Assembly (NCBI GenBank): GCA_964016885.1
Contig: OZ024762.1
Span: forward strand, 26,660,001-26,724,000
Length of the DNA stretch: 64,000 nucleotides
Source: Eledone cirrhosa
Taxonomy: Eukaryota
Direction: 5' to 3'
Below are positions 12,501 to 60,330 of this stretch, in pieces. The notes under the pieces are model-generated. The model searched no databases. It was not told where the DNA came from and saw only the letters and a program-made list of their open reading frames with translations. Position numbers and translations under genes: made by a program. Numbering within the stretch: position 1 is the first letter of the stretch; each line of letters starts with the position of its first letter.

Positions 12501-12557
<57 letters not shown>

Positions 12558-12847
12558 AAATAACGAAACGAAATTAAATTTCGTTTCGTTTGTAACTCAC
12601 TTTTGTATGACTGACGCTTAAACAATTAAGTTAAAAAATGTACATCTACATATGCATACTGAAATACTAGTGTGTATATGAATACACACACGTATACATA
12701 TGTAGGTGTACCAAGTCTTTCACTGGTCGCTTTACAGTGAGCGGCCCAGCTATTCTGTATGTAAACACACAGACAAACCGGTTTTTAGAGTCATACTGGT
12801 TTTTCGGGGGAACACCTTCCCCCTATTCTCCAGAAAGCCAGACAAGG

Positions 12848-12892
12848 AACATTGAACTAGTTTCGTTGTTGTTACAACTCATCAGCAATATT
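12848..12892 (-). ncRNA. Type I hammerhead ribozyme (family A, unit 1)
   Basis: aatattg-CTGATGA-gttgt aaca acaac-GAAA-cta-GTT-caatgtt; palindromic ACTAGT stem III. Confidence 0.9.
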
Positions 12893-13316
12893 TACCTATC
12901 TACCGGCCTTTCTGGAGAATTGTAAAAGCACATATCGTTATATGCTTTTTCTATGAAAATTAGTAGTGGGCAGACTAATTTACATAGAGTGTGAGTACGC
13001 ACCGGTTCAGCGGAGACGATAAAAACAAATAACGAAACGAAATTAAATTTCGTTTCGTTTGTAACTCACTTTTGTATGACTGACGCTTAAACAATTAAGT
13101 TAAAAAATGTACATCTACATATGCATACTGAAATACTAGTGTGTATATGAATACACACACGTATACATATGTAGGTGTACCAAGTCTTTCACTGGTCGCT
13201 TTACAGTGAGCGGCCCAGCTATTCTGTATGTAAACACACAGACAAACCGGTTTTTAGAGTCATACTGGTTTTTCGGGGGAACACCTTCCCCCTATTCTCC
13301 AGAAAGCCAGACAAGG

Positions 13317-13361
13317 AACATTGAACTAGTTTCGTTGTTGTTACAACTCATCAGCAATATT
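13317..13361 (-). ncRNA. Type I hammerhead ribozyme (family A, unit 2)
   Basis: Identical to 12848-12892. Confidence 0.9.
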
Positions 13362-14028
13362 TACCTATCTACCGGCCTTTCTGGAGAATTGTAAAAGCAC
13401 ATATCGTTATATGCTTTTTCTATGAAAATTAGTAGTGGGCAGACTAATTTGCATAGAGTGTGAGTACGCACCGGTTCTGCGGAGACGATAAAAACAAATA
13501 ACGAAACGAAATTAAATTTCGTTTCGTTTGTAACTCACTTTTGTATGACTGACGCTTAAACAATTAAGTTAAAAAATGTACATCTACATATGCATACTGA
13601 AATACTAGTGTGTATATGAATACACACACGTATACATATGTAGGTGTACCAAGTCTTTCACTGGTCGCTTTACAGTGAGCGGCCCAGCTATTCTGTATGT
13701 AAACACACAGACAAACCGGTTTTTAGAGTCATACTGGTTTTTCGGGGGAACACCTTCCCCCTATTCTCCAGAAAGCCAGACAAGGAACATTGAACTAGTT
13801 TCGTTGTTGTTACTTTTTTAACTTAATTGTTTAAGCGTCAGTCATACAAAAGTGAGTTACAAACGAAACGAAATTTAATTTCGTTTCGTTATTTGTTTTT
13901 ATCGTCTCCGCTGAACCGGTGCGTACTCACACTCTATGCAAATTAGTCTGCCCACTACTAATTTTCATAGAAAAAGCATATAACGATATGTGCTTTTACA
14001 ATTCTCCAGAAAGGCCGGTAGATAGGTA

Positions 14029-14073
14029 AACATTGCTGATGAGTTGTAACAACCACGAAACTAGTTCAATATT
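14029..14073 (+). ncRNA. Type I hammerhead ribozyme (family A, inverted arm)
   Basis: aacattg-CTGATGA-gttgtaacaaccac-GAAA-cta-GTT-caatatt; one mismatch each in stems I and II. Confidence 0.8.
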
Positions 14074-14527
14074 CCTTGTCTGGCTTTCTGGAGAATAGGG
14101 GGAAGGTGTTCCCCCGAAAAACCAGTATGACTCTAAAAACCGGTTTGTCTGTGTGTTTACATACAGAATAGCTGGGCCGCTCACTGTAAAGCGACCAGTG
14201 AAAGACTTGGTACACCTACATATGTATACGTGTGTGTATTCATATACACACTAGTATTTCAGTATGCATATGTAGATGTACATTTTTTAACTTACACATT
14301 TTTTAACACACATTTTTTAACTTAATTGTTTAAGCGTCAGTCATACAAAAGTGAGTTACAAACGAAACGAAATTCAATTTCGTTTCGTTATTTGTTTTTA
14401 TCGTCTCCGCTGAACCGGTGCGTACTCACACTCTATGCAAATTAGTCTGCCCACTACTAATTTTCATAGAAAAAGCATATAACGATATGTGCTTTTACAA
14501 TTCTCCAGAAAGGCCGGTAGATAGGTA

Positions 14528-14572
14528 AATATTGCTGATGAGTTGTAACAACAACGAAACTAGATCAATGTT
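14528..14572 (+). ncRNA. Family A hammerhead with mutated cleavage triplet (GAT)
   Basis: aatattg-CTGATGA-gttgtaacaacaac-GAAA-cta-GAT-caatgtt; probably inactive. Confidence 0.7.
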
Positions 14573-14797
14573 CCTTGTCTGGCTTTCTGGAGAATAGGGG
14601 GAAGGTGTTCCCCCGAAAAACCAGTATGACTCTAAAAACCGGTTTGTCTGTGTGTTTACATACAGAATAGCTGGGCCGCTCACTGTAAAGCGACCAGTGA
14701 AAGACTTGGTACACCTACATATGTATACGTGTGTGTATTCATATACACACTAGTATTTCAGTATGCATATGTAGATGTACATTTTGTAACTTAATTG

Positions 14798-15819: not shown

Positions 15820-15824
<5 letters not shown>

Positions 15825-16095
15825 AGTATGTATGTATACAGACGTACAGTAGCATGTATATATATACATACAGGCACACATATGTATATGCACGTATCAG
15901 TTTACCGAACATTTATTATAATAAATGTTCGGTAAACTGATACGTACATATATATATGTGTGCCTGTATGTATATATATACATGCTACTGTACGTCTGTA
16001 TACATATATTTATGTACGTATACATACATACTTACATTTAAGTAAGTGCCGTATAAGAGTGAGAAATGAAATTTCGTTTCATTCTATTCCATTTA
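15820..16095. mobile_element. Short fold-back fragment of retrozyme family B
   Basis: tgtatacagacgtacagtagcatg arms inverted around ~15920; ends gagaaatgaaatttcgtttcattctattccattt(AT)n like other family B termini. Confidence 0.75.
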
Positions 16096-16141
16096 TATAT
16101 ATATATATATATAATATATATAATATATATATATATATATT

Positions 16142-17952: not shown

Positions 17953-20030
17953 CTATCCGTTAGGGCATAACGTGGGGCTGTAATACAGGAAAGTTTTGTG
18001 CAATTTATGTTTACAAGCCGAAATTGCCTCAGATTTATTGTTTAAGATGTGGTCTGTGGCGTAGAGTATTTCCAGGGCCTCAGCGGCGCAGAGGTCACAT
18101 GGTCTTTTATTTCCGTTATACGATCTAGCCCTAGCTAGGATCTCCCAGTGTAACTTATATTGGGTGTGGTTGTTTTTTAGACTCCAGATATAAGCTGAAA
18201 GTGACGTCATATTCCTTCTCAGAGGGTAACGGAAAGAATGGGTATGCATGTAAAGACGCTGCTTGAAACTATTGGCGGTTAACCCTATGTAAGCCCTATG
18301 GGACGTGGGTGTTACAAACTTACATTTGTAGACAATGTTACTAGAATGGCATTTCCCGGATAGGGGGCAAACAGCCCGATTCCTACAATTACAGTTAGTA
18401 CTAACTACAGGGTTGCACGTGTTCCTACGGCTAGGTAGTTTACCTAAATTTGAAGCTGTGATGTTATGTGCAAGGTTAGGAGTCGTAGAGTAAGAAATTT
18501 TAATAGTATTTCTATTAAAAATTTTACTATATTTATGTGTAGGGGGAAAATGCTTTGTAATATGGGAAAGAAAGATCTTAGCTAATGGTGTGGCCACCTC
18601 CATATTATATGGTAGGTTATACCAACAAATGCGACGGGATCTATTTCTTCTAGGTCTATTTTCGTGCTTTGTATATGCTACCTTATCGACAAATCCACTT
18701 CGAGCAAGAGCTTCATTGTAATAAGTGGAATGGTCGTTGAAAATAGGCTCGTTGGTGGAAAGACGGCAAAGCCTCAACGAAACGTTTCTTACCAGGTTCT
18801 TGGTTATGCTGGCAGGATGGTTGGAATGCTTACTTATGTAATTAAGCGTATCATTCGGCTTTCTATACGGGTAATACAACCCATTCAATAAATTGAGGGT
18901 AACATCGAGGTAATTAACGACCGAGAGATTGGCCTCAACCTGTATAGAGAGGTTGAAGCCTTTAAAGAAGGCTGTGAGTTCTTTTATGAACCTGTCGCAA
19001 GAACGAGGTCCGCACTTAGTCATGAGACCATCGTCACGGTACAAACCACCGCCCGCGTTGGGGAATTCGTCCTTGATAGAGAAAAGAAGGAAAAGGCCAA
19101 TAAGATCAGTAACCTCCGCAGAGTCACTGGCGCCCATACTCACGTCGAATGGGGTACTATTGGATTTTTTAATCCAAATAGAGTCGTCGAAATTAATCAC
19201 CGACATTCGGGCATTGAGGATGACATCAACTTCGAAATCCTTAACCACTGTGAGTGTTTTAGCGAAATTGATAGCTCTAAGGAAAAGTGGTGAAGTGATG
19301 GACGAGTAATAATTGTTGATGTCGAATTGGATAAAACGGCAATGTTCCTTGTTACATATGCCGTTGAACCAATCAATCACCGCGAAAGAATTGTTCCACA
19401 GTGCAAGAGGGGCCAAACTTCTAATTTCAGGTATAATTCTATCAAGAATCGTTTTACTAAGTTTACCTAAATCGGACTTCGTAGGGTTAATAAGCCGAAT
19501 AGAGGGGTTGTTCGGAAAATTGGATTTGTGATCCTTTAGGGTAAAGTGGGGAGAAATCGGGTCCAGAGGTTCGGTCCGGTCCAGGATGTTGAGATTAGAT
19601 GTGATTTTAAACCCAGCATCGTTGATTTCATTGATGACGCACCGATTAGTTTTACGGTAATCCTTAGTTACAGCATTATGTAGTAGTTGATGGTAAGTAC
19701 TGCGCTCCACTTGATATAGGTTGCCAGTTTTTTCGGAATGGACGTGCACGGCGTTAGAATCCTTAATAGAACGAATTCTATTCTTCAGGTCTCGCTGGAA
19801 GGAATTGCTACTATTCCGAAATTTGATACTCCGAATGAGTTCCAAGACATCATTTTCGAAGTGTAGCAATGCTGGGTTCCACGGGGGGGGGGGGGGGTAT
19901 TATAGGTTTTAAATCCAAATTTATCCTGTTTGTTGTCTGCTTTTCGCGGATTATCGAAATAAAAGGCACGCCAACGCAACCTTTTAATGAACGCGTCTGT
20001 TTTCTGTATCAGGAGTTTTAGGTATGTTTT
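17953..20030 (-). CDS. Naiad-type PLE polyprotein (RT + CNC zinc knuckle + GIY-YIG endonuclease), one frameshift at the G15 run 19883-19897
   Basis: FIKRLRWRAFYF, TLKDHK, IRLINP, FDINNYYSSI, MGASDSAEVTDLIG, GLYRDDGL, YLDVTLNL, SNHP, CNCRNRAVCPLSGKC, IVYKC...YIG, CDLC...CKH. Confidence 0.93.
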
Positions 20031-20700
20031 AATAGAAATACTATTAAAATGTCTTACTCTACGACTCCTAACCTTGCACATAACATCACAGCTTCAAATT
20101 TAGCTAAACTACCTAGCCGTAGGAACACGTGCAACCCTGTAGTTAGTACTAACTGTAATTGTAGGAATCGGGCTGTTTGCCCCCTATCCGGGAAATGCCT
20201 CTCTAGTAACATTGTCAACAAATGTAAGGTTGTAACACCCACGTCCCATAGGGCCTACATAGGGTTAACCGCCAATAGTTTCAAGCAGCGGCTTTACATG
20301 AATACCCATTCTTTTCGTTACCCTCTAAGAAGGAATATGACGTCACTTTCAGCTTATATCTGGAGTCTAAAAGACCACACCCAATATAAGTTACACTGGG
20401 AGATCCTAGCTAGGGCTAGATCGTATAATGGAAATAAAAGACCATGTGACCTCTGCTCCGCTGAGGCCCTGGAAATACTCTACGCCACAGACCACATCTT
20501 AAACAAAAAATCTGAGGCAATTTCGGTTTGTAAACATAAATTGCACAAAACTTTCCTGTATTACAGCCCCACGTTATACCCTAACGGATAGTACGATCTA
20601 TACGTGGATATTTTACGTTTTGATATGGGAGCTAAGTATATGTTTTGTTTATACCATTACTTATTTGCATAGGTAAGTATATATTACCCGTATGCTCATG
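20030..20700 (+). mobile_element. Inverted 3' copy (GIY-YIG region) at the 5' truncation point of the Naiad element
   Basis: ORF 20049-20591 is nearly identical to the C-terminus of 17953-19869, on the opposite strand; typical PLE inverted pLTR. Confidence 0.9.
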
Positions 20701-25830: not shown

Positions 25831-26045
25831 TGAAGCCACGCTTCTTATCGCCTCCAGTCTTTTTCAACGTTTACCTCTTTTTCAACCATTCTAAACCTTT
25901 TATTCAAGTTTTAAATTTGATAAAAGTTTAGAAGAAGTGACCCACCTAATACAGAGATTCACTAGTAAATAATACGGCACCCCTTTACGGGGTGTCGTAT
26001 TCGTATTCGTATTTGTGTAAAAATATTTTTTTTTTAAATTTCAAC

Positions 26046-27799: not shown

Positions 27800-28097
27800 T
27801 CATAGCAAAAAAAGAACTCATGAAATATATAAAGCAACACACAGACATCACGGAAAAAAACTATTACACTCCACCAACACCAAGAACTCTCCCGACAAAG
27901 ATAAGCATCATCGAAATCTCATTAGAACAATACAAACCTTTAAAACAAAAATTCCCCAACGCAGTTGGGGACTTCAGAGGATATACACTGACATCCTCTT
28001 GGAAACACCCATGACCAGCGAAAGGGATGGTTCTACTGTCCCTTCACCACGAACAAGGTAAGTGACCCTTTCTCATTTGCCCCGTTTCTCATCCAAC

Positions 28098-30474
28098 ATG
28101 GCTGTACTCAGAATAGGCAGTATAAATGCATGTGGCCTGGGATCATCTTGGAAGAGGGTCACCTGCTCAATGACCTCAGGTCACTAAACATAGATGTGGT
28201 GGCCATCAGTGAGACCAGAATCTCCGAGGCAGTGGCCTTCGCACCGATCTTCAGCGGCTACGATGTATACGCATCTCCCAGCCGTCCAGGATCGGGTGGT
28301 GGGGTTGCCTTCCTTTTTCGGAGAGGCTTGGAACTCACGATACGGGCCATCTTCCTGGATCCAGAAGGCAAGTCGGTGGTGCTGGACGTGACCGGCAGCG
28401 AAGGCAATGCTTTCAAGCTAGTGGCCGTCTACGCCCCAACAGGGGCAGGACGGCCAGATTTCTTCAGACGTCTAGAGACCTTTCTTGGAACGTCCCGATC
28501 TTTAGTGTTAGTGGGCGACGGGAACGGTATCTTAGATGCACGCTGGGATCGTGTGGGGATTATTGGATAGGGGAGGAGAGTGCAAGAGCCTCACCAACCT
28601 GCTCAGACGTTTTGAACTGTCTGACAGGTATCGACTGGATCACCCGAATGTGCCAATGTGGACATGGACAAACCGCATCGGGTCATCCAGATCGTATCTA
28701 GATAGGGTATTCTGCAGGGAACTAGATAAGGCTAGTATAAGTTGTCCACAATTTAAAATAGTCGACTACACAGACCACAAATTTGTGATCTGTGAGATCG
28801 ACATAGACAGACTTCATAGACAAGGGCCTGGTTACTGGAAGCTGAACGCGTCTTTCCCGGCGCGCAAGGCCTACAGAGACCGGATTAGTGTATTAGTTAA
28901 GCGGGCGTTGACGGGAGCGGTCGTCAACAACAGGTGGTGGTTCGCCCTGAAAAGGGCAATTAAAGTAGAGTCGATTAGGTTTAGCAAAGGAGTAGTGATA
29001 GAGGAAAATAGAGTAGAGGGAGAGCTAGTCAGAAAGCTAGAAGAGGCGTTTAGGACAGGCATCGCAACCGACGTGCTTGCGGCGAGATTGGCACTCGACC
29101 AATTCTTCAACGCAAAACACGAAGGCTGCGTTGTCAGAGCTAGAGCGCGTGCTCTGAAACACGAGGGGACAAAAGCCGTCCAATGGGCCCGGGTGGCAGA
29201 GGCGCGACGTGGCATCAAAGCCACAATTCGGTCTTTGCCTGACCAAAACGGGTGCCTGATGCTCGAACCCGAGCCGATGTGTGAAGCTTTTCAGCAGCAC
29301 TTTGCTGAACTGTTCGGGAGCGGCGGAGGCCTGGATTGGGGCATGGACTTCAGTGCATACCTCGACGGACTGCCTCGGCTCTCGACGACCGCAGCACAGT
29401 GTTGCGAAAAGCCAATAACAGCCGGTGAAATACGGGAAGCGATGGCTAACTGCACAAGAGGTAAATCGCCAGGTTTAGATAGTCTGCCCTACGAGCTTTA
29501 TGCATTTATGCCAGACTTGTTCGGTGACCTCTTGGCAGACGTCTACTGCAACTGGCAGCAGAACGGGACCTACCCAGTTTTGTGAGCCGGGGAGCAGTGG
29601 CGCTGCTGAGAAAAGACCCGAACAAGGGGTTGTTATTGATAATTTCAGGCCCATAACACTGCTAAACGCAGAGTTCAAGATTTTGGCCAAGGTGTTAGCA
29701 ACGAGGTTGGCGCTTGTCGTCAAGGGTCTGGTGGGAGAGGCGCAGACATGCGCCATTCCGGACAGATCCATACACGACAACCTCCACCTCATGAGATACA
29801 TCATAGAGAGGGTGGTTAAGGAACCTGGCAAGGGTGGGGCGCTGTTCAACTTTGATCAATCCAAAGCATTCGATAGGGTCGACCATCGGTACCTGGCGGC
29901 GGTCCTCGAGGCAGCCGGTTTCGGGCCCGTTTTCAGGGGTTGGATCGCAGCAATGTACAGCGACATCTGCTCAGTTGTGAGGGTGAACGGTCACCTGTCG
30001 CAGCCGTTCAGCATCATGCGCTCAGTCCGCCAGGGTTGTCCCCTCTCGTCCCTCTTGTACGTATTGGCTCTCGAGCCGTTATGCACAATCTGGGGGCGAT
30101 GAGGGGCGAACTAGGATGCGGGAAATCCGAGTCGGCTTATGCTGACGACGTCATCGTGGTGGTGTCGAGCACCAGACACGTCCAGATGCTCGGCACCGCT
30201 CTCAAGGAATACGAAACGGTGACAGGAGCAAAGATAAACCAGGAAAAGTCGGTGGGCTTGCAGCTAGGCACCTGGAGAGGCAAGTCCATGCCGTACGTCA
30301 GCGTCGTGTCGCGTTGGACGGACGGACCGGTAAATTGCTCGGGGTCTGGTTCGGACCAAACCTCCAGATGGAGAAAAACTGGAACGAGGTGACGAGCAGG
30401 GTGGCGTCCCTCACCCAGAAATGGGCTGAGAGGAAGCTGTCCCTGAAAGGCCGGGCGGAAGTGGCGAATGCGTG
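28098..30474 (+). pseudogene. Tx1-type ORF2 (APE endonuclease + reverse transcriptase), frameshifted
   Basis: MAVLRIGSINACGL, ISET, GGVA, VYAP, VGD, YLDRVF, TDH, GYWKLN, KSPGLD, FRPITLLN, DQSKAFDRVDH, VRQGCPLS, YADD. Confidence 0.92.
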
Positions 30475-31850
30475 TGCCTGTTCACTAATCTCCTTCTGTA
30501 CTGTCTCAATCCACACTGCCTGGTCATTGTGTTTAACATCCTGCTCCCATATTCCTCTCCAGAATGTTTCATTTTGTTCCGCCTCAGGGATCAAGTCGTT
30601 GCCTCTTTATTTCCCTTCAAGCTGTCCAAACAGCATCTTCTGGTTGTGTGCAAACATGCGGTTCTTTCTATACTGACTGACTCTGCTCTCGTATCGCTTA
30701 ATTTTTGCACTCTTTGCTACAATGCGTTGCTTCAGTTCCTCTATGATAATATTTAGCTTTTTCCTCCTAGTTTTGTACTTTATTTCCAGTCTATTTTTAG
30801 TGTCTATTTTTTTTTAGTGTCCCATTCAGTAGGGACTCAAGCTTTCCAATGTCATTTCTCATTGCCCTGATTTGACCACTCAGTCGTTTCTTCCACCAAG
30901 GCTCTGATCTTTCTTGTTTGTTGTTTCCTCTCGCTTTTATACCAAGTAATTTCCTCACCGTATTTGCTGTTGCTTTGAGGATATTGTTGCACTGGTGAAG
31001 GCTCCTCGCCTCAAGGTATAGGATGACTTTGTTTACTTTAGCTGTTGTTTCTTTTAACTTTTTCCTGTCTACAAATCTTAGGTTCATAGGTTTCCCACTA
31101 TCATTGTTCAATTCATCTACCACTAAGTTTAGGATATCAACCAAATCTTGTCCTAGCCGTCAGCATTCATCTCCCCAATGGCCGTATCTCTGTTCTAGGT
31201 ATTATTTATTTCAGCATTCAGATCATTGTCTGCTTCGGATAGTTCCCCCGTTCTCTCGACCTCTTCACCTTCATTTCCCATTGGCTCGTTTGCCTGGCAT
31301 ACTCCACTCTCCATTTCCAAGCTAATCTCTCTGCTCAGTTCCTCCAGTTCCAGCTCGCTTATCCACACATTAGTTCTTATTACCCGAACCTGCCCGGCCA
31401 ATTTTTGTTCATCTAATTTAAATAGACCAATATCGTTCCAGATGTTATGTATCCGTTTCCTATAGCCTTTCTCCTTGGGGTTACTCTTCAGGTAACATTG
31501 CATAACAGTTCTATTCAATTCTTTCGTCAAGTTGGTTCTGGTCCCTTTCCTTCTTCTTCCTCCGACACCAGCAGTATTTGGTTGACAGCCAGATCCCTGC
31601 TGCTGAGCTAGGGAGCACCTGTTGGGTGAGAGTCTGTCACATGACATTCTAGTCTCCACTTCACCGTTATTCGAACAGTTTAGGTTCGACATTTAAACAC
31701 TCTTATCGAGGATTGGCGAATGTATGATTACATAACCACCGGTGATTTCATCACCTCCGGTGATTTCGTCACTCCCGGTGATTTTTGTGTGGCAATATCA
31801 CGCTGTAGACGAACATAAATAAACAATCATACAAACAGGCAAAAAAAATT
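30475..31850 (-). pseudogene. R4/Dong-type retrotransposon 5' part (N-terminal ORF, ATG at 31692), 3'-truncated
   Basis: TKELNRTVMQCYLKSNP..GYRKRIHNIW..EQKLAGQVRVI..W.SELELE, PWWKKRL, FWRGIWE; 5' end abuts (TAA)n. Confidence 0.85.
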
Positions 31851-32837: not shown

Positions 32838-35983
<3,146 letters not shown>

Positions 35984-38028
35984 GGTCGTTAATTACCTCG
36001 ACGTTACCCTCAATTTATTGAATGGGTTGTATTACCCGTATAGAAAGCCGAATGATACACTTAATTACATAAGTAAGCATTCCAACCATCCTGCCAGCAT
36101 AAACAAGAACCTGGTAAGAAACGTTTCGTTGAGGCTTTCCCGTCTTTCCACCAACGAACGTATTTTCAACGACCATTCCACTTATTACAATGAAGCTCTT
36201 GCTCGAAGTGGATTTGTCGATAAGGTAGCATATACAGAGTACGAAAATAGACCTAGAAGAAATAGATCCCGTCGCATTTGTTGGTATAACCCGCCATATA
36301 ATATGGAGGTGGCCACACCATTAGCTAAGATCTTTCTTTCCCTTATTACGAAGCACTTTCCCCCTACACATAAACATAGTAAAATTTTTAATAGAAATAC
36401 TATTAAAATTTCTTACTCTACGACTCCTAACCTTGCACATAACATCACAGCTTCAAATTTAGCTAAACTACCTAGCCGTAGGAACACGTGCAACCCTGTA
36501 GTTAGTACTAACTGTAATTGTAGGAATCGGGCTGATTGCCCCCTATCCGGGAAATGCCTCTCTAGTAACATTGTCTACAAATGTAAGGTTGTAACACCCA
36601 CTTCCCGTAGGGCCTACATAGGGTTAACCGCCAATGGTTTCAAGCAGCGTCTTTACATGCATACCCATTCTTTTCGTTACCCTCTAAGAAGGAATATGAC
36701 GTCACTTTCAGCTTAAATCTGGAGTCTAAAAGACAACCACACCCAATATAAGTTACACTGGGAGATCCTAGCTAGGGCTAGATCGTATAACGGAAATAAA
36801 AGACCATGTGACCTCTGCGCTGCTGCGGCCCTGGAAATTCTCTACGCCACAGACCACATCTTAAACAAAGAATCTGAGGCAAGTTCGGCTTGTAAACATA
36901 AATTGCACAAAACTTTCCTGTATTACAGCCCCACGTTATACCCTAACGGATAGTACGATCTATACGTGAATATTTTACGTCTTGATGTGGGAGCTAAGTA
37001 TATGTTTTGTTTATTCCTTTACTTATTTGCATAGGTAAGTATATATTACCCGTATGTTTTGTGAAGGTACGTATACCTTCTCGTACGTTTATTTGATTGT
37101 AATTTTTCATATATTCTGGTACATAGGGTTTGGCTATGTGAATACGGGAGTTTTGCGTCTGTGTGAGTATGCAGGTTCGTACGTATGGTGGGTGTGTGTA
37201 TATGTGTATTTCTTGTTTTAGTTGACTTACGTCTCCGAACATTCGTGTATTTATATGTAGGTATGTGTGTGCGCTTGTTATATACGTATGTATTTATTTA
37301 TATACGTTTATATAATTATTTATTTGTATACACGCATACACACACACACATATTTATATGTTCGTGGTTTTGTATACCTATGGTAAGGTTTTGCGTATGC
37401 TTGTGTATGCACGTATTTGTTTACATGTATGTATTTATTTATTTCTATTTCTTCTGTATTGTATTTATTTACTTTGTTCTTAACTCTGTAGCGGAGATTC
37501 ATTTGGTCTCCTAGTTAGAATTTTAGTCTACGACTTCTGCTATACCATTTACGTGATTTTGTCTTTGCGTGCTATTGTTCTCCACGCTCCACATTCACGT
37601 ATTATCTTCGTTTTTTCGTTCATTGCCAGAGAACGTCTCTATGCACCACCTAAGAGAACATTAGTCTACGACCTCTTTTATGCCATAAACGTGGTTCTGT
37701 CTTTGCGTGTAATTGTTTTTCACCCCTCCTATTAATGACGTATTATTCGTTTTTCCCCGTTCTTTGCCAGCGAACGTCTCCACGAACCAAAGTATTGTCT
37801 TCATGTCTTCCTCCAGTTGCAACGTTTTTTGAAATATCCAGTTCTGCGTTTACAGATTGAATTTGTTAGTTTCAGAAGATACCGTTAAGGGTGAAAGCAG
37901 CGATTCTCTGCTTAAACTTTAATCTGTTATTTTAATAAATATTTGCTCTACGGTTCTTATATATTTGATATATATCTATCCTTATCGAGCCCTCTTTGGA
38001 TTTTAGTCTTCAAATTTATTATCATTAC

Positions 38029-38030: not shown

Positions 38031-38125
<95 letters not shown>

Positions 38126-38338
38126 CGTTTCTGAATTTGTTTAGCAAGATTCTTTATCTGAAATCGTGTGTTGAAACCGATATTGTTATACTTTGGGAGG
38201 GTCGTGTTGCCAATAAGAAACACACGCACCAGTTGCTTTCACTTCAATTTAATTTAATATATATTTATAAATTTACAAATTTATAAATTTCTGGTTGGTT
38301 GGTTGGTTCCACAACCAGATAGTTGTTTATATATATAT

Positions 38339-38383
38339 AGTCATAGTTCTTTCGTCACACACTCTGTGACCTCTTCAGTGACT
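38339..38383 (-). ncRNA. Minimal hammerhead-like motif in PLE pLTR
   Basis: agtca-CTGAAGA-g gtcac agagtgt gtgac-GAAA-gaa-CTA-tgact. Confidence 0.7.
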
Positions 38384-38680
38384 GGGGATTTCTTTCTTCG
38401 TTTCTGTGCCTTTCCTTTCTTCTATCCTACGCCATTTTGTTTGTGTGTGGGTTGCGTGCTCAGTTTGCGCATGCGCCACATCCGGGTGTCTGTGTGTGTT
38501 TGTGTTCATTTTTCTATTTTTCTATTTATATTTGTTTGTTTATTTATTTATTTATTGTTGGTTGGTTGTTTGTTCTATGTGTGTGTGTGTTTTCATTTTG
38601 TCTTGTGTGTGTTTTCATTTTGTGTGTGTTTTCAATTGTAAGTTGTTTGTTCTATGTGTGTGTGTGTTTTCATTTTGTCC

Positions 38681-41600
38681 TTAATTGTAAGTTGTGATGT
38701 TGCTGTTCCACTCATATTTTCTATTTAATTTTGGTTTTAATTCTTTTATGCTTACTGCCTCTGTAATTTGCCTAAACATTGCGTCTTTCTTGTGTGTGGA
38801 TTCTATTTTTATTTCTATGCTCTCTAATTTACCCCTGTGTTCTATCTTAGCATGTTGGTAGAGCACAGATGATTCTTTACTATCTTGGAGGTCTCGCCAG
38901 TGTTCATTTATTCGTTCCCCTATACTACGAGCTGTCTCACCGATGTACACTATATTTTTGTTTCTACATTGTCCTTCAGTACATCTTATGCTATATACTA
39001 CATTTCTAGTTTTACAGTTAATATGGGGGCTTATTTTACAGGTTATACATTTCTTATCTATACATGAGGGTCTTTGGAACGGGTATGTCTTGCTAATAAG
39101 TGTTTTTACGGAGGTACCAGGTCTTTCTACTATCTTAATATTGAGATTATGTTTCTTTAGGGCCCTTCTAAATTTGTAGGCTAGTTCGCCTCTAGGGGTT
39201 GTATTGATGAACATTACACTCTGGTATTTATTGCTATCATACCATGAGTTTATTCTATTGGCCTTGTTCTTAGTTCTTTCTATTCTATTCCAAAATTTGC
39301 TCCTATACAAGGGGCAGGTCCCATTTATGTCATTATTTACCATTTTTTCCCATTTGGTTCTGGCTCCTTTATACACTCTGATTCTATCTCTCTGATTGTA
39401 GCCAGAGAACTGCATACGGTGGATGAAGTGTTGTATGTGTCTCTCTAGTTCTTCGGGGTTGCACATGCGGGACACATTTCTCATCACCCGTATCAAATCC
39501 GCAATCAGTATGTTGATTTTGGTATGGTCCGAAATGGCCGAGTTTCGGTGGATCAGATGTTTGGAAGTCATGGGTTTGGCATAATGGGAATGGAGGATTT
39601 GTTTTTGGTTGTTAATAGTATCTAACCAGAGCTCTGTGTCTAGTACAGGTAATCGATGGTTGGGGTGTCTACTTGGGTAGTCTATAGTAACTCTAATGCT
39701 CTGGTGGATGGAGTTTGCTATTTGCTGGATGCTTTCCATTGTGTTTTTCTCTGGTTCCTGACTGTTCTTTAGTGGGGGTGTCTTAACTACGATGTTTATA
39801 TCATCTACGTAGCGGGAGTACATTATCAGGGTTAAGCTGTCTTCTAATTGTTCTTTAAGTTTTTTTTTAAGTCTACTGTCCCACCATACCATGAACAAGT
39901 TAGCTATGTCGCCTGCAATGCTAACACCAATGGCTGCTCCTTCCTCTTGGGCATATGTTTTACCATTAAATTTGAACATATGTTCCTTAAGGGTTAATTT
40001 TATGCTGGCCCCTACCGCATGTGCAATCATTTTCTTCAGTTCATCGTGGTTTTCGGGTGTCCGTATGGCTCTGGTCCACCCGTTCCATCTATCTGTGTGG
40101 GTTTTCTTGGCCATTGAGGTAATGGTAGGTGGTCTGCCTCTTGCTGGTCTTGTAGGGCACAGGTTGCTAAGGTCATAAGTGTCTAGGTAACTATTACTAT
40201 GGGTAAGCTTAAGTAGAAGTCCCAGCTCACTGGTATCAATCCCACGGAACTCAACCTTGCTCTCGCTGATCATTTCGACGCATTTCTCCACAGCAAAATC
40301 CACGTCAATAGATGGATACAGGGACACAACATCCATACTGCCTATTATGCAGTTTGTTAGGTCCCCAGATCGGTTACCCGCGCCGATTCTGCTGAGGAGG
40401 TCCTCCGTGCTGTCACACACATCTGGGGACATCTCAATGATGGGGCGTATGATCAGGGAGAGGAAGTAGGACAGTCTGTAGTTACTAGCAATGTTAGCCC
40501 CACAGACTGGCCGTGTTGGTGGTCCCGCGACAGGGTCCCAGCCCGTTTTATGGTCTTTTCGAAGCCCATACAACGCCGGCACGTCATTGTTCCAGGCCTG
40601 GAAGTTGTTGGCAGTCCTTTTGTTGGGCTGCATTATATTTGTCCACATCACCATATGGGCATTGAGGGTTTTTTCTCTATCCTCATGCTCCTGTGGTGTT
40701 ACCTCTCTTGTGTTAGTGATGTGGGGTTGCATTGCCTGGATGTAGTTTGGCAGGCTGTCAACCGACATTCTGCCAGACTTGTCTGTTGGAAAGCATGCTA
40801 TCTCTCCATTACGCGAGCGCTGCATGAGCTTACGCAAGCCATTTGCAGATTCTTCTCCCAGTTGCTGGGCCTCTATTCTATTATGCTTCTTGCTATACTG
40901 TTCTATAATATTTCTAAGTTCGGATTTAGCTATACTAAATTGTGCTTCTGTTTGTTCATCGACCTGCGACGGCAACTGCGTGCGTTTGTTAAATGGCAAA
41001 GTCGTGGCGTGGACTCGTCGTAGGTCGAATGATTTATCGGAGGGGTTATAAAACGGAGAGTTCCAGGCTGCTGCTTTATGTGTACTAGTGCTATTGTTAG
41101 TTGTGTTGTTTCTATTTCCACCAACAGCAGCAGCCTCAGCTTCATGGTTGTTTCTATGTCTCTCATAATTACTCCTGTCTCTTTCCACTGGCTCAATGTT
41201 GTTATCTACCCTATTTTGTGTGTCTGTGTGTTCGTCTTGGTTATTCTCTTTGTCCTTAGTCTCCCTACTCCTTTTAATCCTATTAGTTTCTCTTATTTCT
41301 CTGATTTCTGTGCTACTGTCATTACTTGTTTTCTGTGTCTGTGTGTTTGTTAAGATTGTAGTGGTGGTGAGAGGCATTGAATGTGTGTGTGTTGTTGTTG
41401 TTGATGTGTGTTGTTGTTGATGTGTGTTGTTGTCTCCGTGTGTGTGTGTGTTATCGTTGTTGTGTGTGTTGTTATTGTTGTTTGTGTTTGCGTGTCTGTT
41501 GTTGTTGTATCTGGGTATGTTGCTGTTGTTGTTGTTGTTGATGTGTGTGTTGTTGTTATTGTTGTCTCCGTGTGTGTTGTTATTGTTGTTTGTGTCTGCG

Positions 41601-41712
41601 TGTCTGTTGTATCTGGGTATGTTGCTATTGTTGGTGTTGTATCTGGGTATGTTGCTATTGTTGGTGTTGTATCTGGGTATGTTGCTATTGTTGTTGTTAT
41701 TGTTGTTTGTGT
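38681..41712 (-). CDS. Uninterrupted PLE RT + GIY-YIG ORF (first genuine in-frame Met at ~41377)
   Basis: PTDKSG, LYGLRKDHK, PPTRPV, SMDVVSLYPSI, EGAAIG, YSRYVDDI, LPVLD, C-x4-C-x2-C linker, NVVYSIRC..YIGETARSIGERINEH. The first ~25 aa of the ORF-track call are antisense of the inverted arm. Confidence 0.93.
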
Positions 41713-42286
41713 AAATATAGTGTACATAGGTGAGACAGCTCGTAGTATAGGGGAACGAATAAATGAACACTGGCGAGACCTCCAAGATAGTAAAGAATCA
41801 TCTGTGCTCTACCAACATGCTAAGATAGAACACAGGGGTAAATTAGAGAGCATAGAAATAAAAATAGAATCCACACACAAGAAAGACGCAATGTTTAGGC
41901 AAATTACAGAGGCAGTAAGCATAAAAGAATTAAAACCAAAATTAAATAGAAAATATGAGTGGAACAGCAACATCACAACTTACAATTAAGGACAAAATGA
42001 AAACACACACACACATAGAACAAACAACTTACAATTGAAAACACACACAAAATGAAAACACACACAAGACAAAATGAAAACACACACACACATAGAACAA
42101 ACAACCAACCAACAATAAATAAATAAATAAATAAACAAATATAAATAGAAAAATAGAAAAATGAACACAAACACACACAGACACCCGGATGTGGCGCATG
42201 CGCAAACTGAGCACGCAACCCACACACAAACAAAATGGCGTAGGATAGAAGAAAGGAAAGGCACAGAAACGAAGAAAGAAATCCCC

Positions 42287-42331
42287 AGTTACTGAAGAGG
42301 TCACAGAGTGTGTGACGAAAGAACTATGACT
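42287..42331 (+). ncRNA. Minimal hammerhead-like motif in the inverted pLTR
   Basis: agtta-CTGAAGA-ggtcac agagtgt gtgac-GAAA-gaa-CTA-tgact. Confidence 0.7.
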
Positions 42332-42482
42332 ATATATATATAAACAACTATCTGGTTGTGGAACCAACCAACCAACCAGAAATTCATAAATTTGTAAATT
42401 TATAAATATATATTAAATTAAATTGAAGTGAAAGCAACTGGTGCGTGTGTTTCTTATTGGCAACATGACCCTCCCAAAGTAT

Positions 42483-42528
<46 letters not shown>

Positions 42529-48539: not shown

Positions 48540-48593
<54 letters not shown>

Positions 48594-48595
<2 letters not shown>

Positions 48596-49414
48596 AGTAT
48601 GTACACGTACATACATATATGTATACAGACGTACAGTAGTATGTATATATATATATATATAAATACATGCACACATATATACCTGTACGTATGGATTCAC
48701 CGAACATTTATTATAATGCTCGATGTGTTTGTAAACAAACATCCCCTATTAAGCCGTAGTGTCTCGCAACCATTTTTGCTCGTTTGTTCAACACTGACAA
48801 AGGAACGTTGTACTAGTTTCAAGCTTATTAGCTATCGTCAGCAACGTATACCTTCCTGCCAGATTGTTGAACGTATATACTTACCTTATGCATATTAACG
48901 TCTGAGTAGCCCAATTTGCATATCGAGTGGGTCAATCGGCCGGGTGCACCGAAAACGATAAACGGAAAAAATTAAACGAAATTTCTTTTCCCACTCTTAG
49001 TACGGCTGTTACATAAATATAAGTATGTACACGTACATACATATATGTATACAGACGTACAGTAGTATGTATATATATATACATACATGCACACATATAT
49101 ACATGTACGTATGGATTCACCGAAAATTTATTATAGTGCTCGATGTGTTTGTAAACAAACATCCCGTATTAAGCCGTAGTGTCTAGCAACCATCGTTGCT
49201 CGTTTGTTCAACACTGACAAAGGAACGCTGTACTAGTTTCAAGCTTATTAGCTATCGTCAGCAACGTATACCTTCCTGCCAGCTTGTTGAACGTATATAC
49301 TTACCTTATGGATATTAACGGCTGAGTAGCCCAGTTTGCATATCGAGTGGGTTAATCGGCCGGGTGCACCGAAAACGATAAATGGAAAAAATGAAACGAA
49401 ATTTCATTTCCCAC
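48594..49414 (-). mobile_element. Retrozyme-like array, family B2: two ~420-bp units with HHRs at 48805-48847 and 49225-49267
   Basis: acgttg-CTGACGA-t agct aata agct t-GAAA-cta-GTA-caacgt; period 420. Confidence 0.88.
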
Positions 49415-49870: not shown

Positions 49871-50909
49871 TTATATATAACTTTGATAACTTTGATAAAT
49901 TTGATAGGTTTCGGCCAGTATTGGCCCAGGACATGTCTAACTTAATAGCACCACCTGACGAAGTCTTACAAATCAGTGTTTGGGTACCATGGCCCACTCG
50001 AGCAGAGAGTTATTGTTTACGGAGGCATATCCGGGTGTAGGAGGCTTATCCGGGATTTCTTGAAGGAATTTATCCAAAGACTTCTTGAACTTGATGGGGT
50101 CTGTCTCTGCTTTGATGTGTTTTTGTGTAATGTTAAAGAGTGGAGGGCCAATTGAAGTGGAATAATTGTGCCGTATTGTTGTTATGTGATGCGAGTGAGA
50201 TTTTTGTCATGGGCGGATAGCACGGAGCCCAAGCCTTGGGTGTACACTAAGGGTGATGCCAACATCATTTGGGCAAAGCTGATGGAATATTTTCCACATC
50301 ATACAGATAATGTAGCGCACACGGCGACGTTGAATAGAATATAGTTTGAGCTTGTCTAATCGACTCCAATAGTCAAGGCCTGTCATGCCAACTATCTTTT
50401 TTGTAATTGACCTTTGGGGTGCTTCAACTTTCATGATACTTTGTTTCGTGTGGGGTGACCACAGTGGACAACAGTATTCAAGGTGGGGTCGGGTAAAAGT
50501 GGAGAAGAGAAGGATAACAGTGTGGATAGCTCTCGTCTGGAAAGTTCTAAGAATCCAGGAACACATTCTGCGAGCCATATCAACTTTGCTGTTTTTATGA
50601 GTGGCCGAGCTTATGTTGTCCACAATTACTCCCAGGTCTCTGATGTTATTGGATGCCACTAGAGTTTCACCTGAAGGAAGAGAATATGGTAGTTTCAGGG
50701 CATCCTTTTTTCCAAAGTGCATTAATTCAAATTCATCATCATTCAACAGCCAACAGCATATTATTCATCTCTGCACATTGGATAACAGCCAGTAGGTCTG
50801 ACTGAAGGCAAGTCCAGTCACCCGCCTCCTTGATTGGAATCAGCAGATTGGAATCATCTGCGAAGATTCTGATGTTGGTGTGCTTGATGATGTCAGTAAT
50901 GTCATTAAT
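49871..50909 (-). pseudogene. CR1-group LINE 3' fragment
   Basis: [57 protein letters not shown]; 3' hairpin ggccaatactggcc plus short tatcaaa(g/t) tandem tail. Confidence 0.88.
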
Positions 50910-51105: not shown

Positions 51106-51189
<84 letters not shown>

Positions 51190-51193
<4 letters not shown>

Positions 51194-52593
51194 GTAAGTA
51201 TGCATGTATACGTACATACATATATGTATACAGACGTACAGTAGCATGCACATATATATATATATATATACATATATACATACATATGCATACAGGTACA
51301 CATACATCTATGCACGTATCAGTTTAGCGGCGCTAACGTCGCTTTGTTCGTTTGTCAACAAACTGAACAGCCTTAATTTATGCCATACGGTGTTAAGGCA
51401 ACCACGTCACCTTTTTGTTCAACACTGACACAGGAACGATGTACTAGTTTCAAGCTTGTTAGCTATCATCAGCACCGTTTACCCATCTGCCAGATAGTTG
51501 AACGTTCGAAAGTATATACTTTCCTTATGAAAATTAACGGCTGAGCAGCCTAATTTGCATATTGAGTGAGTTAAATCGGTCAGGCATACCGAAAACGATA
51601 AATTGAAACAAAATGAAAACGAAATTTCATTTCTCACTCTTAGTATGGCACTTACTTAAATGTAAGTATGCATGTATACGTACATACATATATGTATACA
51701 GACGTACAGTAGCATGCACATATATATATATATATATATACATATATACATACATATGCATACAGGTACACATACATCTATGCACGTATCAGTTTAGCGG
51801 CGCTAACGTCGCTTTGTTCGTTTGTAAACAAACTGAACAGCCTGAATTTATGCCATACGGTGTTAAGGCAACCACGTCACCTTTTTGTTCAACACTGACA
51901 CAGGAACGATGTACTAGTTTCAAGCTTGTTAGCTATCATCAGCACCGTTTACCCATCTGCCAGATAGTTGAACGTTCGAAAGTATATACTTTCCTTATGA
52001 AAATTAACGGCTGAGCAGCCTAATTTGCATATTGAGTGAGTTAAATCGGTCAGGCATACCGAAAACGATAAATTGAAACAAAATGAAAACGAAATTTCAT
52101 TTCTCACTCTTAGTATGGCACTTACTTAAATGTAAGTATGCATGTATACGTACATACATATATGTATACAGACGTACAGTAGCATGCACATATATATATA
52201 TATATATACATATATATACTTTCGAACGTTCAACTATCTGGCAGATGGGTAAACGGTGCTGATGATAGCTAACAAGCTTGAAACTAGTACATCGTTCCTG
52301 TGTCAGTGTTGAACAAAAAGGTGACGTGGTTGCCTTAACACCGTATGGCATAAATTCAGGCTGTTCAGTTTGTTTACAAACGAACAAAGCGACGTTAGCG
52401 CCGCTAAACTGATACGTGCATAGATGTATGTGTACCTGTATGCATATGTATGTATATATGTATATATATATATATATATGTGCATGCTACTGTACGTCTG
52501 TATACATATATGTATGTACGTATACATGCATACTTACATTTAAGTAAGTGCCATACTAAGAGTGAGAAATGAAATTTCGTTTTCATTTTGTTT

Positions 52594-52596
<3 letters not shown>
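51190..52596. mobile_element. Retrozyme-like array, family B1: ~469-bp units (HHR minus at 51435-51479 and 51905-51949; inverted arm HHR plus at 52252-52296)
   Basis: aacggtg-CTGATGA-t agct aaca agct t-GAAA-cta-GTA-catcgtt; periods 468 and 470; inversion at ~52213. Confidence 0.9.
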
Positions 52597-52636
<40 letters not shown>

Positions 52637-52731: not shown

Positions 52732-52735
<4 letters not shown>

Positions 52736-53601
52736 TTATGTTCAGCGAATTCACGGACTTGACTTCACTTTTCGTTGCTTCACCATCTTTGTTTGTTTAC
52801 ACTCTCGCTCGTTCCCCTTATTTACGTGTCCCAACGACTTTCTTTAGCCGTTGCTCGCACCAACCGGGGGTATATGGTCTTTAAAGCGATGAAATACCAA
52901 TGCTGGTTGGAAGATCACTGATGAAGGACTAACTTTATTCATATGTAACCCATTAGCTACCACGCAGCACGTTTATTCTCATATTTGCACATATTTTTTC
53001 CCCCGCTTCTGACCCGTCTATTTCGTTCTTACTGCTTCCTCTTTCTCTCTGTCATTCTCTCTGTTAGCCTCTTCCTCACCCTTCACTCACTCACTCTCTG
53101 TTACTACCTATCCTCCTCCTCCTCCTTCCCGTTTGACCTGTGCGTAATTCTTTTCTTTCGCACGCTTGGTCAGGCTGGTTCCCCTTTTCTCTCTCTCTCG
53201 TCTACGATTTCACAGAACTTATGTTCACCGAATTCACGGACTAGACCCCTTCTTCCTCTCGTTAGACCTGTGCGGAATTCCTTCCTTGCTCACATTTCAA
53301 CCAGGTTTGATGGTCTTTATTCTCTCTCGTTCACGATTTCACCGAACTTATATTCATGGAAATCTGGGACTTGACTCTTTCTTCCTCACTTTTCGTTGCT
53401 TCACCATCTTTGTTTGTTTACACTCTCGCTGTTCCCTTTATTTACGTGTCCCAACGACTTTCTTTAGCCGTTGCTCGTACCAACCGGAGGTATATGGTCT
53501 TTAAAGCGAAGCAATACCGATGATCGTTGGAAGATCACTGATGATGGACCACTTTATTCATATGTACCCCATTTGCAACCACGCAGCACGTTTATTCTCA
53601 T
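52732..53601 (+). repeat. Family C1: ~620-bp pyrimidine-rich unit, ~1.4 copies
   Basis: Block ttcgttgcttcaccatc...gatcactgatga...cacgcagcacgtttattctcat repeated at ~52770-52983 and ~53390-53601. Confidence 0.75.
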
Positions 53602-54108: not shown

Positions 54109-54126
54109 TATATATATATATATATA

Positions 54127-54907
<781 letters not shown>

Positions 54908-56077: not shown

Positions 56078-56284
56078 AGTTTGTTTACAAACACACCGAG
56101 CATTAAAATAAATGTTTGGTGAATCCATACGTACATATATATATATATGTGCGTGCTTGTATGTATATATATATACATACTACTGTACGTCTGTATACAT
56201 ATATGTATGTACGTATATATACTTATATTTAAGTAACAACCGTACCAAGTCTGGGAAATGAAATTTCGTTTCATTTTTTCCGTT

Positions 56285-56285
<1 letters not shown>
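56078..56285 (+). mobile_element. Family B2 3'-terminal fragment
   Basis: Ends gggaaatgaaatttcgtttcattttttccgttt(AT)n. Confidence 0.8.
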
Positions 56286-56317: not shown

Positions 56318-57127
56318 GAATGAAAATATACCGTGAAACAGGAACGTCGATTATCACTAGCCTGCTGATTATCATTCGTATTTATTCGCATTAAACAGTA
56401 GATAACTAAAATCAGTGCGAACGATAACTAAATTAAGCTAGGGGGACAGAGGACAGTAAACAAACAACATGGTAGTAATGCAACGTAAAGAGGGGAAAAG
56501 AGAGACAAGTCAATGCACCTTGTGGGCTTAAGTCCGAGTCGCAACAACGCAGCACGCCAATTTTCATTCACATGTATATTTTCATTCACATGTATATTTT
56601 CTCCCTTCGCTGTTTGTTCGTAATTTTTTCTGTCACCTTACTGCTATGCTCTTTTTTCTCTACCCCTTCTCTCTCCTTTACCTCTTGCTTTATTCCACCC
56701 CGCCGCTGGTCACACACTCTCCGCTGGCCCATTCCTCACACTTTCTCAGACTCAATCTCTGCTACTCCTCCTCTCTCACTTTCTCCGGTCTGACGTGCGT
56801 GTAATTCTTTCCTCTCTCAATTTTCGCGTGGCTCGGCCGTGTCTATGACTTCTCGTCATTTCATTTGTCGGACTTAAGCTCACAAGATTCATTGACTTGT
56901 GTCCTTTTCCTCTCTTTACGTTGCATTACATTACTACCATGTTGTTTGTTTACTTTCCTCTGTCCTGATAACTTAATTTAGTTATCGCTCGCATTGATTT
57001 TACGTATATAGTGTTTAATGCGAAGAAATACCAATGACAACCACAGCTATTGATGATGGACATTCCTGTTTCTCGTGCTATTTTCATTCAAACGTTCATA
57101 TTCGCAACAACGCAGCACACCATTCTT

Positions 57128-57135
<8 letters not shown>
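56316..57135 (+). repeat. Family C2: ~563-bp unit with terminal redundancy plus inverted partial copy (56316-56540)
   Basis: gcaacaacgcagcac at 56541 and 57104; homologous to C1; 56316-56540 is the reverse complement of ~56865-57090. Confidence 0.72.
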
Positions 57136-59599: not shown

Positions 59600-59865
59600 A
59601 TATATATATATATAATATATATATATAATATATATAGATATTTATAATATAATATATATATATATATAATATATATGATATATATATATATATATAGTAA
59701 TAATAATAAATTTGAAGACTAAAATTCAAAGAGGGCTCGATAAGGATAAATATATATCAAATATATAAGAACTGTAGAGCAAATATTTATTAAAATAACA
59801 GATTATTCAAATAACAGATTAAAGTTTAAGTAACACTTTAATCTGTTATTTTAATAAATGTATAT

Positions 59866-59899
<34 letters not shown>

Positions 59900-59901
59900 A
59901 T

Positions 59902-59993
<92 letters not shown>

Positions 59994-59996
<3 letters not shown>

Positions 59997-60330
59997 CGGG
60001 TAAAATTTCCGAGATCCATGGACGAGTTCTCTCCAGCGGTCTCTGTCCATCATTATTGCTGCCATGTCCTGCGTCTCCAACAGACCAGTGTCTGTCCTTA
60101 GGGCATCAATATACGTTAACCTTGGTCTTCCTCTTCTAGTGTGTCCATGTAGGGGCTCCCAAAGGAGCACTGAGTGCAATGTCAACTCTGGATGTCGGTG
60201 AGCATGTCCAGCTAACCTCAGTCTCCTCTGTGTCACTTTTGAGCTGACTTTTGGGAGGCTCCCGTACAGCTCTGAGTTTTTCAACCTCAGTGTATACTCG
60301 TTAATGTTCAGAGCCATCCTCAACATTCTT
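59994..60330 (-). pseudogene. RTE-group LINE 3' fragment
   Basis: MLRMALNI..N.ELYG.LP..RRLRLAGH..LLWEP..RRGRPRLTYID.L..DTG..DRDRWR; runs into (TA)n. Confidence 0.85.

Follow-up and report, generated by a model that had tools for sequence, protein, structure and literature searches.

The window, by which we mean the whole 64,000-nt stretch of DNA analyzed here, is AT-microsatellite-rich animal DNA from a genome of 3.0 Gb, and it holds a series of insertions built from tandem units of 420 to 470 nt, each unit with one predicted minimal type I hammerhead ribozyme. Two related unit families in the window share a terminal hairpin: the array at 12554 consists of 468- to 469-nt units, and the other units range from 420 to 470 nt. 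We label the family of 410 to 490 nt AC and that of 468 nt B; their exact ribozyme cores number 23,244 and 5,202, respectively, across the genome. In the ribozyme sense, copies stop at one of two fixed points, which we call T (the 3' end named by an earlier note on this DNA) and S (a second fixed end upstream of T). Coding Penelope-like elements (PLEs) lie in the same window (Table 1).

Table 1. Retrozyme arms, ribozyme, tail, and coding PLEs, by position in the window
Feature	Position	Strand	Basis
T arm, 469-nt-family insertion, 2.7 units; hammerhead cores at 13354 and 12885	12554..13813	-	
S arm of the 12554..13813 insertion, 2 units	13814..14797	+	
Short S arm	15820..15918	-	by eye; script called it non-S owing to a 20-nt deletion
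Short T arm, partner of 15820..15918	15915..16096	+	
Hydra-like PLE, 5'-truncated frame, CxCX5C linker	17953..19899	-	
Coding PLE, head-to-head in (AT)n; 1038-aa frame at 38681-41797	38124..42488	-	
Single arm, 2 units, ends at S; units differ by 4.7%	48588..49414	-	
S arm of the 52220..52597 insertion, 2.2 units, two hammerheads	51189..52219	-	
T arm of 470-nt-family head-to-head insertion, 0.8 unit, one hammerhead	52220..52597	+	
Minimal type I hammerhead, predicted	52252..52296	+	read from sequence
Tail, 58 nt, from the S site to the T end of the plus arm; TTTCAAT, then (AT)n	52540..52597	+	sequence
Terminal hairpin within the tail, AAAUGAAAU-UUC-GUUUUCAUUU	52567..52588	+	fold
T arm, 420-nt-family insertion	54126..54249	-	
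S arm of the 54126..54249 insertion, 1.4 units, hammerhead core at 54562	54240..54812	+	
Single 5'-truncated arm, ends at T	56079..56285	+	

The predicted hammerhead at 52252 combines stem I (AACGGUG/CAUCGUU), CUGAUGA, stem II, and GAAAC-UA-GUA with a palindromic ACUAGU stem III, and its cut is predicted after 52289; across the retrozyme units, the predicted cut is GUA or GUU. At the level of the motif, every unit has the full hammerhead core and stem I of a type I ribozyme. Rfam Hammerhead_HH9 reached 35 bits on the 469-nt-family array, under the gathering score of 52, and the rest of the Rfam output for the window was mainly microRNA noise caused by AT repeats. Units in the genome sample measure 410 to 500 nt and have no meaningful reading frame, and tandem non-coding units of a few hundred bases with a GC content below 50% place them among the non-LTR retrozymes. 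They are like the metazoan members of that group, as the literature consulted describes them, in their non-coding tandem units, low GC content, and single type I hammerhead per unit, as well as in having thousands of dispersed copies in a genome that also harbors PLEs, but they stand at the long end of the size range. LTRs and a 4-bp target duplication are absent, the arms ending in (AT)n at S or T without flanking terminal repeats. Unlike autonomous PLEs, the retrozyme encodes no protein, neither a reverse transcriptase (RT) nor a GIY-YIG endonuclease.

All five insertion ends that the earlier note had named are present where it placed them, each running into (AT)n. These T ends lie at 12554 (minus strand, TTGTTT followed by ATAT), 16094/5, 52597, 54126 (minus strand), and 56285. 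The end at 52597 reads TTTCAAT followed by ATAT (caat, then at), 2 nt short of the modal T point, and the end at 12554 likewise stops 2 nt before the TTTAT-ATAT point; tandem copies continue as TTTAT-CG, and at T ends the sequence becomes (AT)n instead. T lies 269 to 310 nt downstream of the predicted cut (331 nt in a unit with a 30-nt duplication), farther than the ~200 nt that had been claimed, and ~150 to 165 nt upstream of the next predicted cut. S, which lies 59 nt (AC) or 72 nt (B) upstream of T, has the sequence CATACTTA, then C or T, then AT, meeting ATAT at the junction, and its 468-nt-family version ends TAACTTAATT; S ends occur in the window at 14797, 15820, 48588, 51189, and 54812. 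At the 52540..52597 locus, S falls at +250 and T at +306/308 from the predicted cut. Each of the four head-to-head insertions in the window has one arm that runs to T and one that runs to S, as at 51189..52219, where the S arm lacks the tail and finishes ACTTACATTTA and then (TA)n. No ribozyme is present in the copies that end at 16095, 54127, and 56285, and their sense was assigned by homology.

The ends were also mapped in a sample of 320 loci, almost entirely from within 57 Mb of the start of contig C1; 260 of the loci merged into 177 segments (861 kb), the 10 cut-site loci not being among them. Alignment produced 555 raw arms, of which 337 remained after cross-family and low-complexity matches were removed, and the census of ends was taken over the 123 ribozyme-holding arms in ribozyme-anchored segments. 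T accounts for 58 of these ends, S for 51, and other places for 14, with none within 15 nt of the cut. An AT run adjoins 56 of 60 T ends and 52 of 55 S ends, compared with 5 of 14 other ends, which indicates the same (TA)n preference that characterizes PLEs. The 3' ends are fixed and the 5' ends scattered, the copies are arranged in tandem and head-to-head, and the tail stands on one inverted arm, all of them features of PLE-type insertions.

Genome-wide counts were made with sequence patterns whose reversed controls gave 0 to 2 matches. Exact T-to-(AT)n junctions of AC number 9,613 (reversed-pattern control, 0), next to 16,048 AC read-throughs at T; B gave 2,332 T-to-(AT)n matches, 1,096 of them forward, the reverse ones being partly double-counted. 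S joins (AT)n in 3,388 forward and 5,689 reverse matches, the latter again partly double-counted, and we estimate ~6,800 such junctions. The predicted cut site joined to (AT)n has 12 matches at ~9 places, and a control site ~35 nt past T with a longer microhomology (4-nt ATAT) has 4 junctions. A fixed 3' terminus distinct from the ribozyme cut, the central claim of the earlier note, is therefore confirmed, and a start of reverse transcription at a specific internal site away from the cut, by a Penelope-type protein, is supported both by these counts (9,613 against 12 and 4) and by the published PLE mechanism as far as it is set out in the portions of PMC11167929 used here. The sharp peak at T that the note had called for is real, but it is half of a T/S pair, since there are two fixed ends, one per arm.

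Microhomology of 2 to 4 nt to the (AT)n target is present at the insertion ends, as had been suggested. Microhomology alone does not choose the end, because no arm ends near the cut and only 4 of the 123 end in the internal (AT)n tract of the unit, where homology to the target is longest. These same figures bear on an origin of the ends at the level of DNA, in which AT-rich parts of the unit would slip or recombine with (AT)n and the arrays would grow by unequal crossing-over. S and T do both end in AT-compatible bases, and block duplication can yield periodic arrays, such as a period-3 variant that one S arm carries and its T arm lacks. The neglect of the internal tract and of the better microhomology site, the strict pairing of S with T described below, and a direct target repeat of ~16 nt around an insertion in non-repetitive DNA (C1:85.31 Mb) nevertheless make this origin exceedingly improbable; it is contradicted for the ends, and block duplication may still lengthen some arrays.

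Target duplications are not readable within (AT)n. The insertion in non-repetitive DNA (L301, G000:C1:85311500-85316500) has a target repeat that shares ~4 nt with each end of the element, as from a staggered cut with microhomology at S and T. At another locus (L069, G000:C1:5540380-5544070), 28 nt of identical flank follow both arms, each in its own sense, and a long identical flank follows both arms in the same manner in an S+S PLE insertion (L314); the flanks at these two loci are target DNA duplicated in inverted orientation.

The pairing of arms is the strictest regularity in the data. Among 121 head-to-head pairs, 90 are S+T, 1 is T+T, none is S+S, and 30 have one or both ends elsewhere; with two locally duplicated pairs dropped, 88 S+T pairs stand against 1 (p = 3e-25). 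Either the S or the T arm can be on the left, and the T arm is the longer in 46 of the 88. It extends more than 30 nt past S in 81 pairs and stops at S in 7. Arm lengths within pairs are weakly correlated overall (rho = 0.30), and the correlation is not significant within families. Each fixed end abuts the target and looks like the beginning of a cDNA in antisense; two first strands were therefore likely primed, one per side of the break.

Previous work (PMC3846280 and PMC8557442, in the portions consulted) offers a route with a single priming site, in which the inverted arm arises when the first cDNA folds back and primes itself and the other fixed end arises when the endonuclease resolves the intermediate. 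The 14 of 88 junctions that are near-palindromic (5' ends within 10 nt of each other), mostly at internal hairpins, have the appearance that this route would give, and 58 of the 88 pairs are nested one way or the other. The remaining 30 are nested in neither direction, which is impossible by fold-back onto the first cDNA and excludes it as a general route; either arm may be the longer, and S and T both match RT starts seen in vitro for a PLE in the relevant portions of PMC11167929. We therefore regard a single priming site as very improbable.

Two primed first strands recall another group of retrotransposons. In the twin priming of L1, both target ends prime cDNA on one RNA, and the cDNA ends are then joined to give an inversion; the position of the second start varies, and there is no overlap between the arms. 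The retrozyme differs from L1 on both counts, since both of its starts are fixed and its arms overlap in 81 of 88 pairs.

The closer parallel is with PLEs themselves, and the comparisons that follow are limited to the portions of the cited papers that we drew upon. According to Frangieh et al. 2024 (PMC11167929), a PLE protein cleaves AT-rich DNA on both strands and extends each of them; its two start sites are internal, distant from the ribozyme cut, and mark the borders of the genomic tail. The protein is predicted to be a dimer, and it uses uncut RNA. Craig et al. 2021 and Arkhipova et al. 2013 (PMC8557442 and PMC3846280) report (TA)n targets and a tail carried by one of the inverted arms. 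The retrozyme shares with PLEs the two fixed 3' ends away from the ribozyme cut, the tail on one arm only, 5' truncation, head-to-head inverted arms, and (TA)n targets. It departs from them in the length of the tail (59 to 72 nt, against 30 to 40 in PMC11167929, PMC8557442, and PMC3846280) and in the place of its ends (215 to 310 nt after the cut, against 85 to 92 in the anole element). Both retrozyme end sites carry 2 to 4 nt of target microhomology; the start site of the anole PLE in vitro is non-homologous to the target, with no difference in start site between the strands (PMC11167929). In the PLE papers, the tail is described as "optional" or as lying "often at one end"; in the retrozyme, the rule of one S and one T is counted at 88:1:0, and, again in contrast with those papers, the retrozyme arms reach 17.6 units. 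T is the known PLE tail end; taken singly, the ingredients are all familiar, and what is new is the coupling rule and its presence in a retrozyme.

Coding PLEs of this genome have the same layout. The element at 38124..42488 encodes an RT, a CX4CXXC linker, and a GIY-YIG-like end (RVT_1 E = 4e-4, below the cut-off) and has a hammerhead-like core in its terminal repeat; its tail of 58 nt (38124-38181) stands on one arm only, in the retrozyme layout but with an unrelated sequence, and related PLE families have tails of similar length ~200 nt after a hammerhead-like core. The N-terminal part of its 1038-aa frame is Asn-rich and repetitive, and the inverted arm (41714-41986) joins within it. A second, Hydra-like family has two fixed ends 88 nt apart and 39,031 first-look candidates genome-wide; read by eye, the inverted copies in 13 of its loci include 7 S+T and 1 S+S. 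No canonical hammerhead core was found in this family by a simple pattern, which a non-canonical ribozyme could escape, and canonical hammerheads are reported throughout Hydra in the consulted portions of PMC8557442. Since a family lacking a canonical core has paired ends, neither a ribozyme nor a circle is needed for them. The Hydra-like PLE is very abundant (17953-22110 and 35976-36950 in the window; L308-L320 in the sample), with a 713-aa frame, a 3' UTR of ~1 kb, and an 88-nt tail ending ~28 nt before the start codon. Its 3' UTR was considered as a relative of the retrozyme unit and rejected, the likeness being short and low-complexity only.

In 1.24 Mb of loci, which hold several PLE families, no coding PLE shares the tail, ribozyme, or terminal-repeat sequence of the retrozyme; this differs from the Xenopus retrozymes, which Li, Clavereau and Pollet 2026 (bioRxiv 10.64898/2026.07.22.740005) tie to PLE terminal repeats in the part of their preprint considered here. 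The earlier note had further held that the terminal hairpin is what the protein recognizes. The hairpin is indeed kept in the 468-nt family with a single U-A to C-G change. Covariation between AC and B was scored on a 21-nt core (a MAFFT alignment misaligned the two families) and amounts to one compensatory pair, with a score that 36 of 500 shuffles reached. One compensatory pair is too little to demonstrate hairpin recognition, and coding PLEs have the same layout with unrelated tails.

We turn to the RNA template, for which the paired arms are informative. Arms of one insertion differ by 2.5% on average, compared with 8.7% to the median other arm. Overlap was sufficient in 74 of 85 pairs, and the partner arm is strictly the nearest in 21 of these and nearest or tied in 34; in the 468-nt family, 8 of 16 pairs have no differing site between the arms (tallied from the table). 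The 5' ends show no preference for the cut: 13 of all 245 AC arms stop there (12.5 expected), as do 8 of the 154 arms that were not fetched by their own ribozyme (7.6 expected; 87 of them cross the cut). The absence of an excess points to an RNA that was continuous there, as a circle or an uncut multimer. Strict pairing, overlapping arms that are not nested, and this read-through of the cut together argue strongly for coupled twin priming.

Long arrays provide a further record. Among 21 arms of ~3 or more units, 14 differ by no more than 0.5% between neighboring units, 2 are strongly ABAB (3.5 to 4.1% at lag 1 and 0.2 to 0.7% at lag 2), 2 are weakly ABAB, and 2 old arrays have heterogeneous units without a period (2.9% and 5.5%). 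One arm is counted in two classes, and 2 short arms fall between classes. In a 10-unit arm (L243) and a 5-unit arm (L056), two haplotypes alternate ABAB, as from a dimer circle. A young B haplotype with three A>G changes within 6 nt comprises 69 units at 7 loci (L171-L172 and L301-L307); it is nearly substitution-free, its changes mark both arms and fill nearly all units of the 7 loci, and its arms reach 17.6 units. Linear copying cannot fill an array with a new variant, and a step from monomer to multimer must therefore have occurred at least once, for which a circle is the simplest route.

The chief alternative to a circle retains priming at two sites but places it on a long, uncut, linear read-through transcript of an existing array, with arrays lengthened by other means. 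The anole PLE uses unprocessed RNA, and its ribozyme mutants insert normally (PMC11167929, in the portions consulted); the hammerhead here is minimal, with a stem III of 1 to 2 bp, a type that cuts poorly as a monomer according to the corresponding part of PMC7229834. The lack of stops at the cut fits uncut RNA equally well, aperiodic arrays exist, and the longest arm of the young lineage, at 17.6 units, could have templated all of its shorter arms. Such a transcript, however, can neither lengthen an array nor spread a new variant to every unit, as the three clustered changes in both arms at 7 loci demand, and the assembly holds no parent array longer than that 17.6-unit arm. We consider a linear read-through template unlikely, though it is the most credible of the alternatives.

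Far less probable is that the template consists of ribozyme-cut linear monomers and that the RT, on reaching the 5' end of a monomer, transfers to the 3' end of that monomer or a different one. An 11-unit arm on a small contig with several indels (L307, G000:C744:11000-19500) does pass from an older haplotype, with GUC at the cut, to the young GUU haplotype, the change falling no earlier than the last base before the cut and no later than position 69 after it, and two alternating templates could give ABAB arms; yet the 5' ends show no excess at the cut, and most long arms are uniform although many 468-nt haplotypes coexist.

A circular template copied for more than one round, as the earlier note had proposed, is accordingly the reading of the arrays that we somewhat favor on the pattern of unit sequences. 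The fixed end on which the note had based it is no evidence for a circle, because the Hydra-like PLE family, in which no canonical hammerhead core was seen, ends in the same way. The private variants that it had suggested as a check proved a weaker instrument than proposed: 8 of 94 multi-covered insertions hold a fixed variant seen nowhere else in the sample, and the best candidate for proof of a circle, a 20-unit array with three variants among 30 insertions sampled, was set aside when its variants proved common to 7 loci genome-wide. Among variants fixed in all covered units, A>G outnumbers T>C by 17 to 8, and among single-unit variants the figures are 40 and 43 (one-sided p = 0.045; Fisher p = 0.11). 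The A>G excess among array-wide variants, taken on the RNA strand, is no more than a hint of A-to-I editing.

Taken together, we assign a probability of roughly 0.6 to a scenario in which these non-coding hammerhead retrozymes, whose insertions end at internal T and S, one per arm, were written into (AT)n by a Penelope-like RT/endonuclease, two cDNAs likely being primed, one at each side of a double-strand cut, with a single, probably circular RNA as their template. The DNA itself shows the starting point: copies lie in (AT)n, their 3' ends fixed and their 5' ends scattered. From the PLE literature, we infer that a PLE protein, probably as a dimer, would bind the 59- to 72-nt tail and cut the AT-rich target on both strands; one cDNA would start at the 3' edge of the tail (T) and the other at its 5' edge (S), with 2 to 4 nt of AT pairing helping both starts. 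The two arms have one haplotype in common, span the same part of the unit, and read across the cut with no excess of stops; the template would thus have been continuous there. In most cases it would have been a circle of one unit and in some a circle of two, with copying continued for up to 17 or more rounds, and the joining of the two cDNA ends would then yield a head-to-head insertion with the tail on one side only. Several observations weigh against this scenario: the uncut RNA, the non-homologous start, and the equal start sites on both strands of the anole PLE in vitro (PMC11167929); the lack, in 1.24 Mb of loci, of a coding PLE with the tail or ribozyme of the retrozyme; the paired ends of the Hydra-like family; the two heterogeneous old arrays; the period-3 variant of one S arm; the 4.7% between the units at 48588..49414; the haplotype switch of L307; and a partner arm that is strictly the nearest in only 21 of 74 pairs. 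A more specific and tentative form of this scenario, to which we give slightly less than an even chance, is that the Penelope dimer clamps the tail on a single RNA circle and launches two RTs from the tail edges, each primed by one side of the double-strand cut and both rolling round the same circle for kilobases.

The tandem and inverted structures of PLEs and their one-sided tail are named as an open question in PMC8557442, in the part considered here. If the more specific form, with a dimer on a single circle, is true, the PLE tail and the inverted repeats would be the fixed footprint of coupled twin priming, and the arrays would record, for the first time at genome scale, how a ribozyme circle is retrotransposed by rolling-circle copying, with RNA edits carried into each unit. 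Cervera and de la Pena 2020 (PMC7229834) demonstrated circles of retrozyme RNA in three animals and suggested that PLEs reverse transcribe them into tandem cDNA, and Li, Clavereau and Pollet likewise proposed PLE mobilization (bioRxiv 10.64898/2026.07.22.740005); the return of the circles to genomes is proposed in the consulted portions of both works, without a demonstration in either, and those portions contain no mapping of insertion ends, arm pairing, or 5' truncation. A literature search, with subscription papers and supplements mostly outside its scope, returned no paper that maps retrozyme ends, states the rule of one S and one T, or calls PLE inversions twin priming. That rule, the overlapping non-nested arms, and the lack of a stop at the cut translate into exact predictions for an existing assay (PMC11167929, as described in the portions consulted), namely, that an element of 60 to 70 nt holds two coupled starts and that synthesis on a circle continues over multiple rounds. 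Tool builders would likewise be interested in a short cis signal by which an RT can place multi-kilobase concatemers in (AT)n.

The window holds a bevy of other repeats. Further hammerhead-like cores at 16338-16820, 22450, 24088, 49724, 57660, 58571, and 63001 belong to other non-coding repeats in (AT)n, and a census found many such hammerhead-like non-coding families across the genome. Two related AT-flanked non-coding elements of ~850 nt (52733-53600 and 56319-57130) have internal repeats and a CTGATGA core in an unusual context. A LINE-type element at 25950-30676 has a gag-like frame followed by endonuclease and RT frames, and other LINE fragments lie at 5483-6847, 50207-50764, and 59838-60329.
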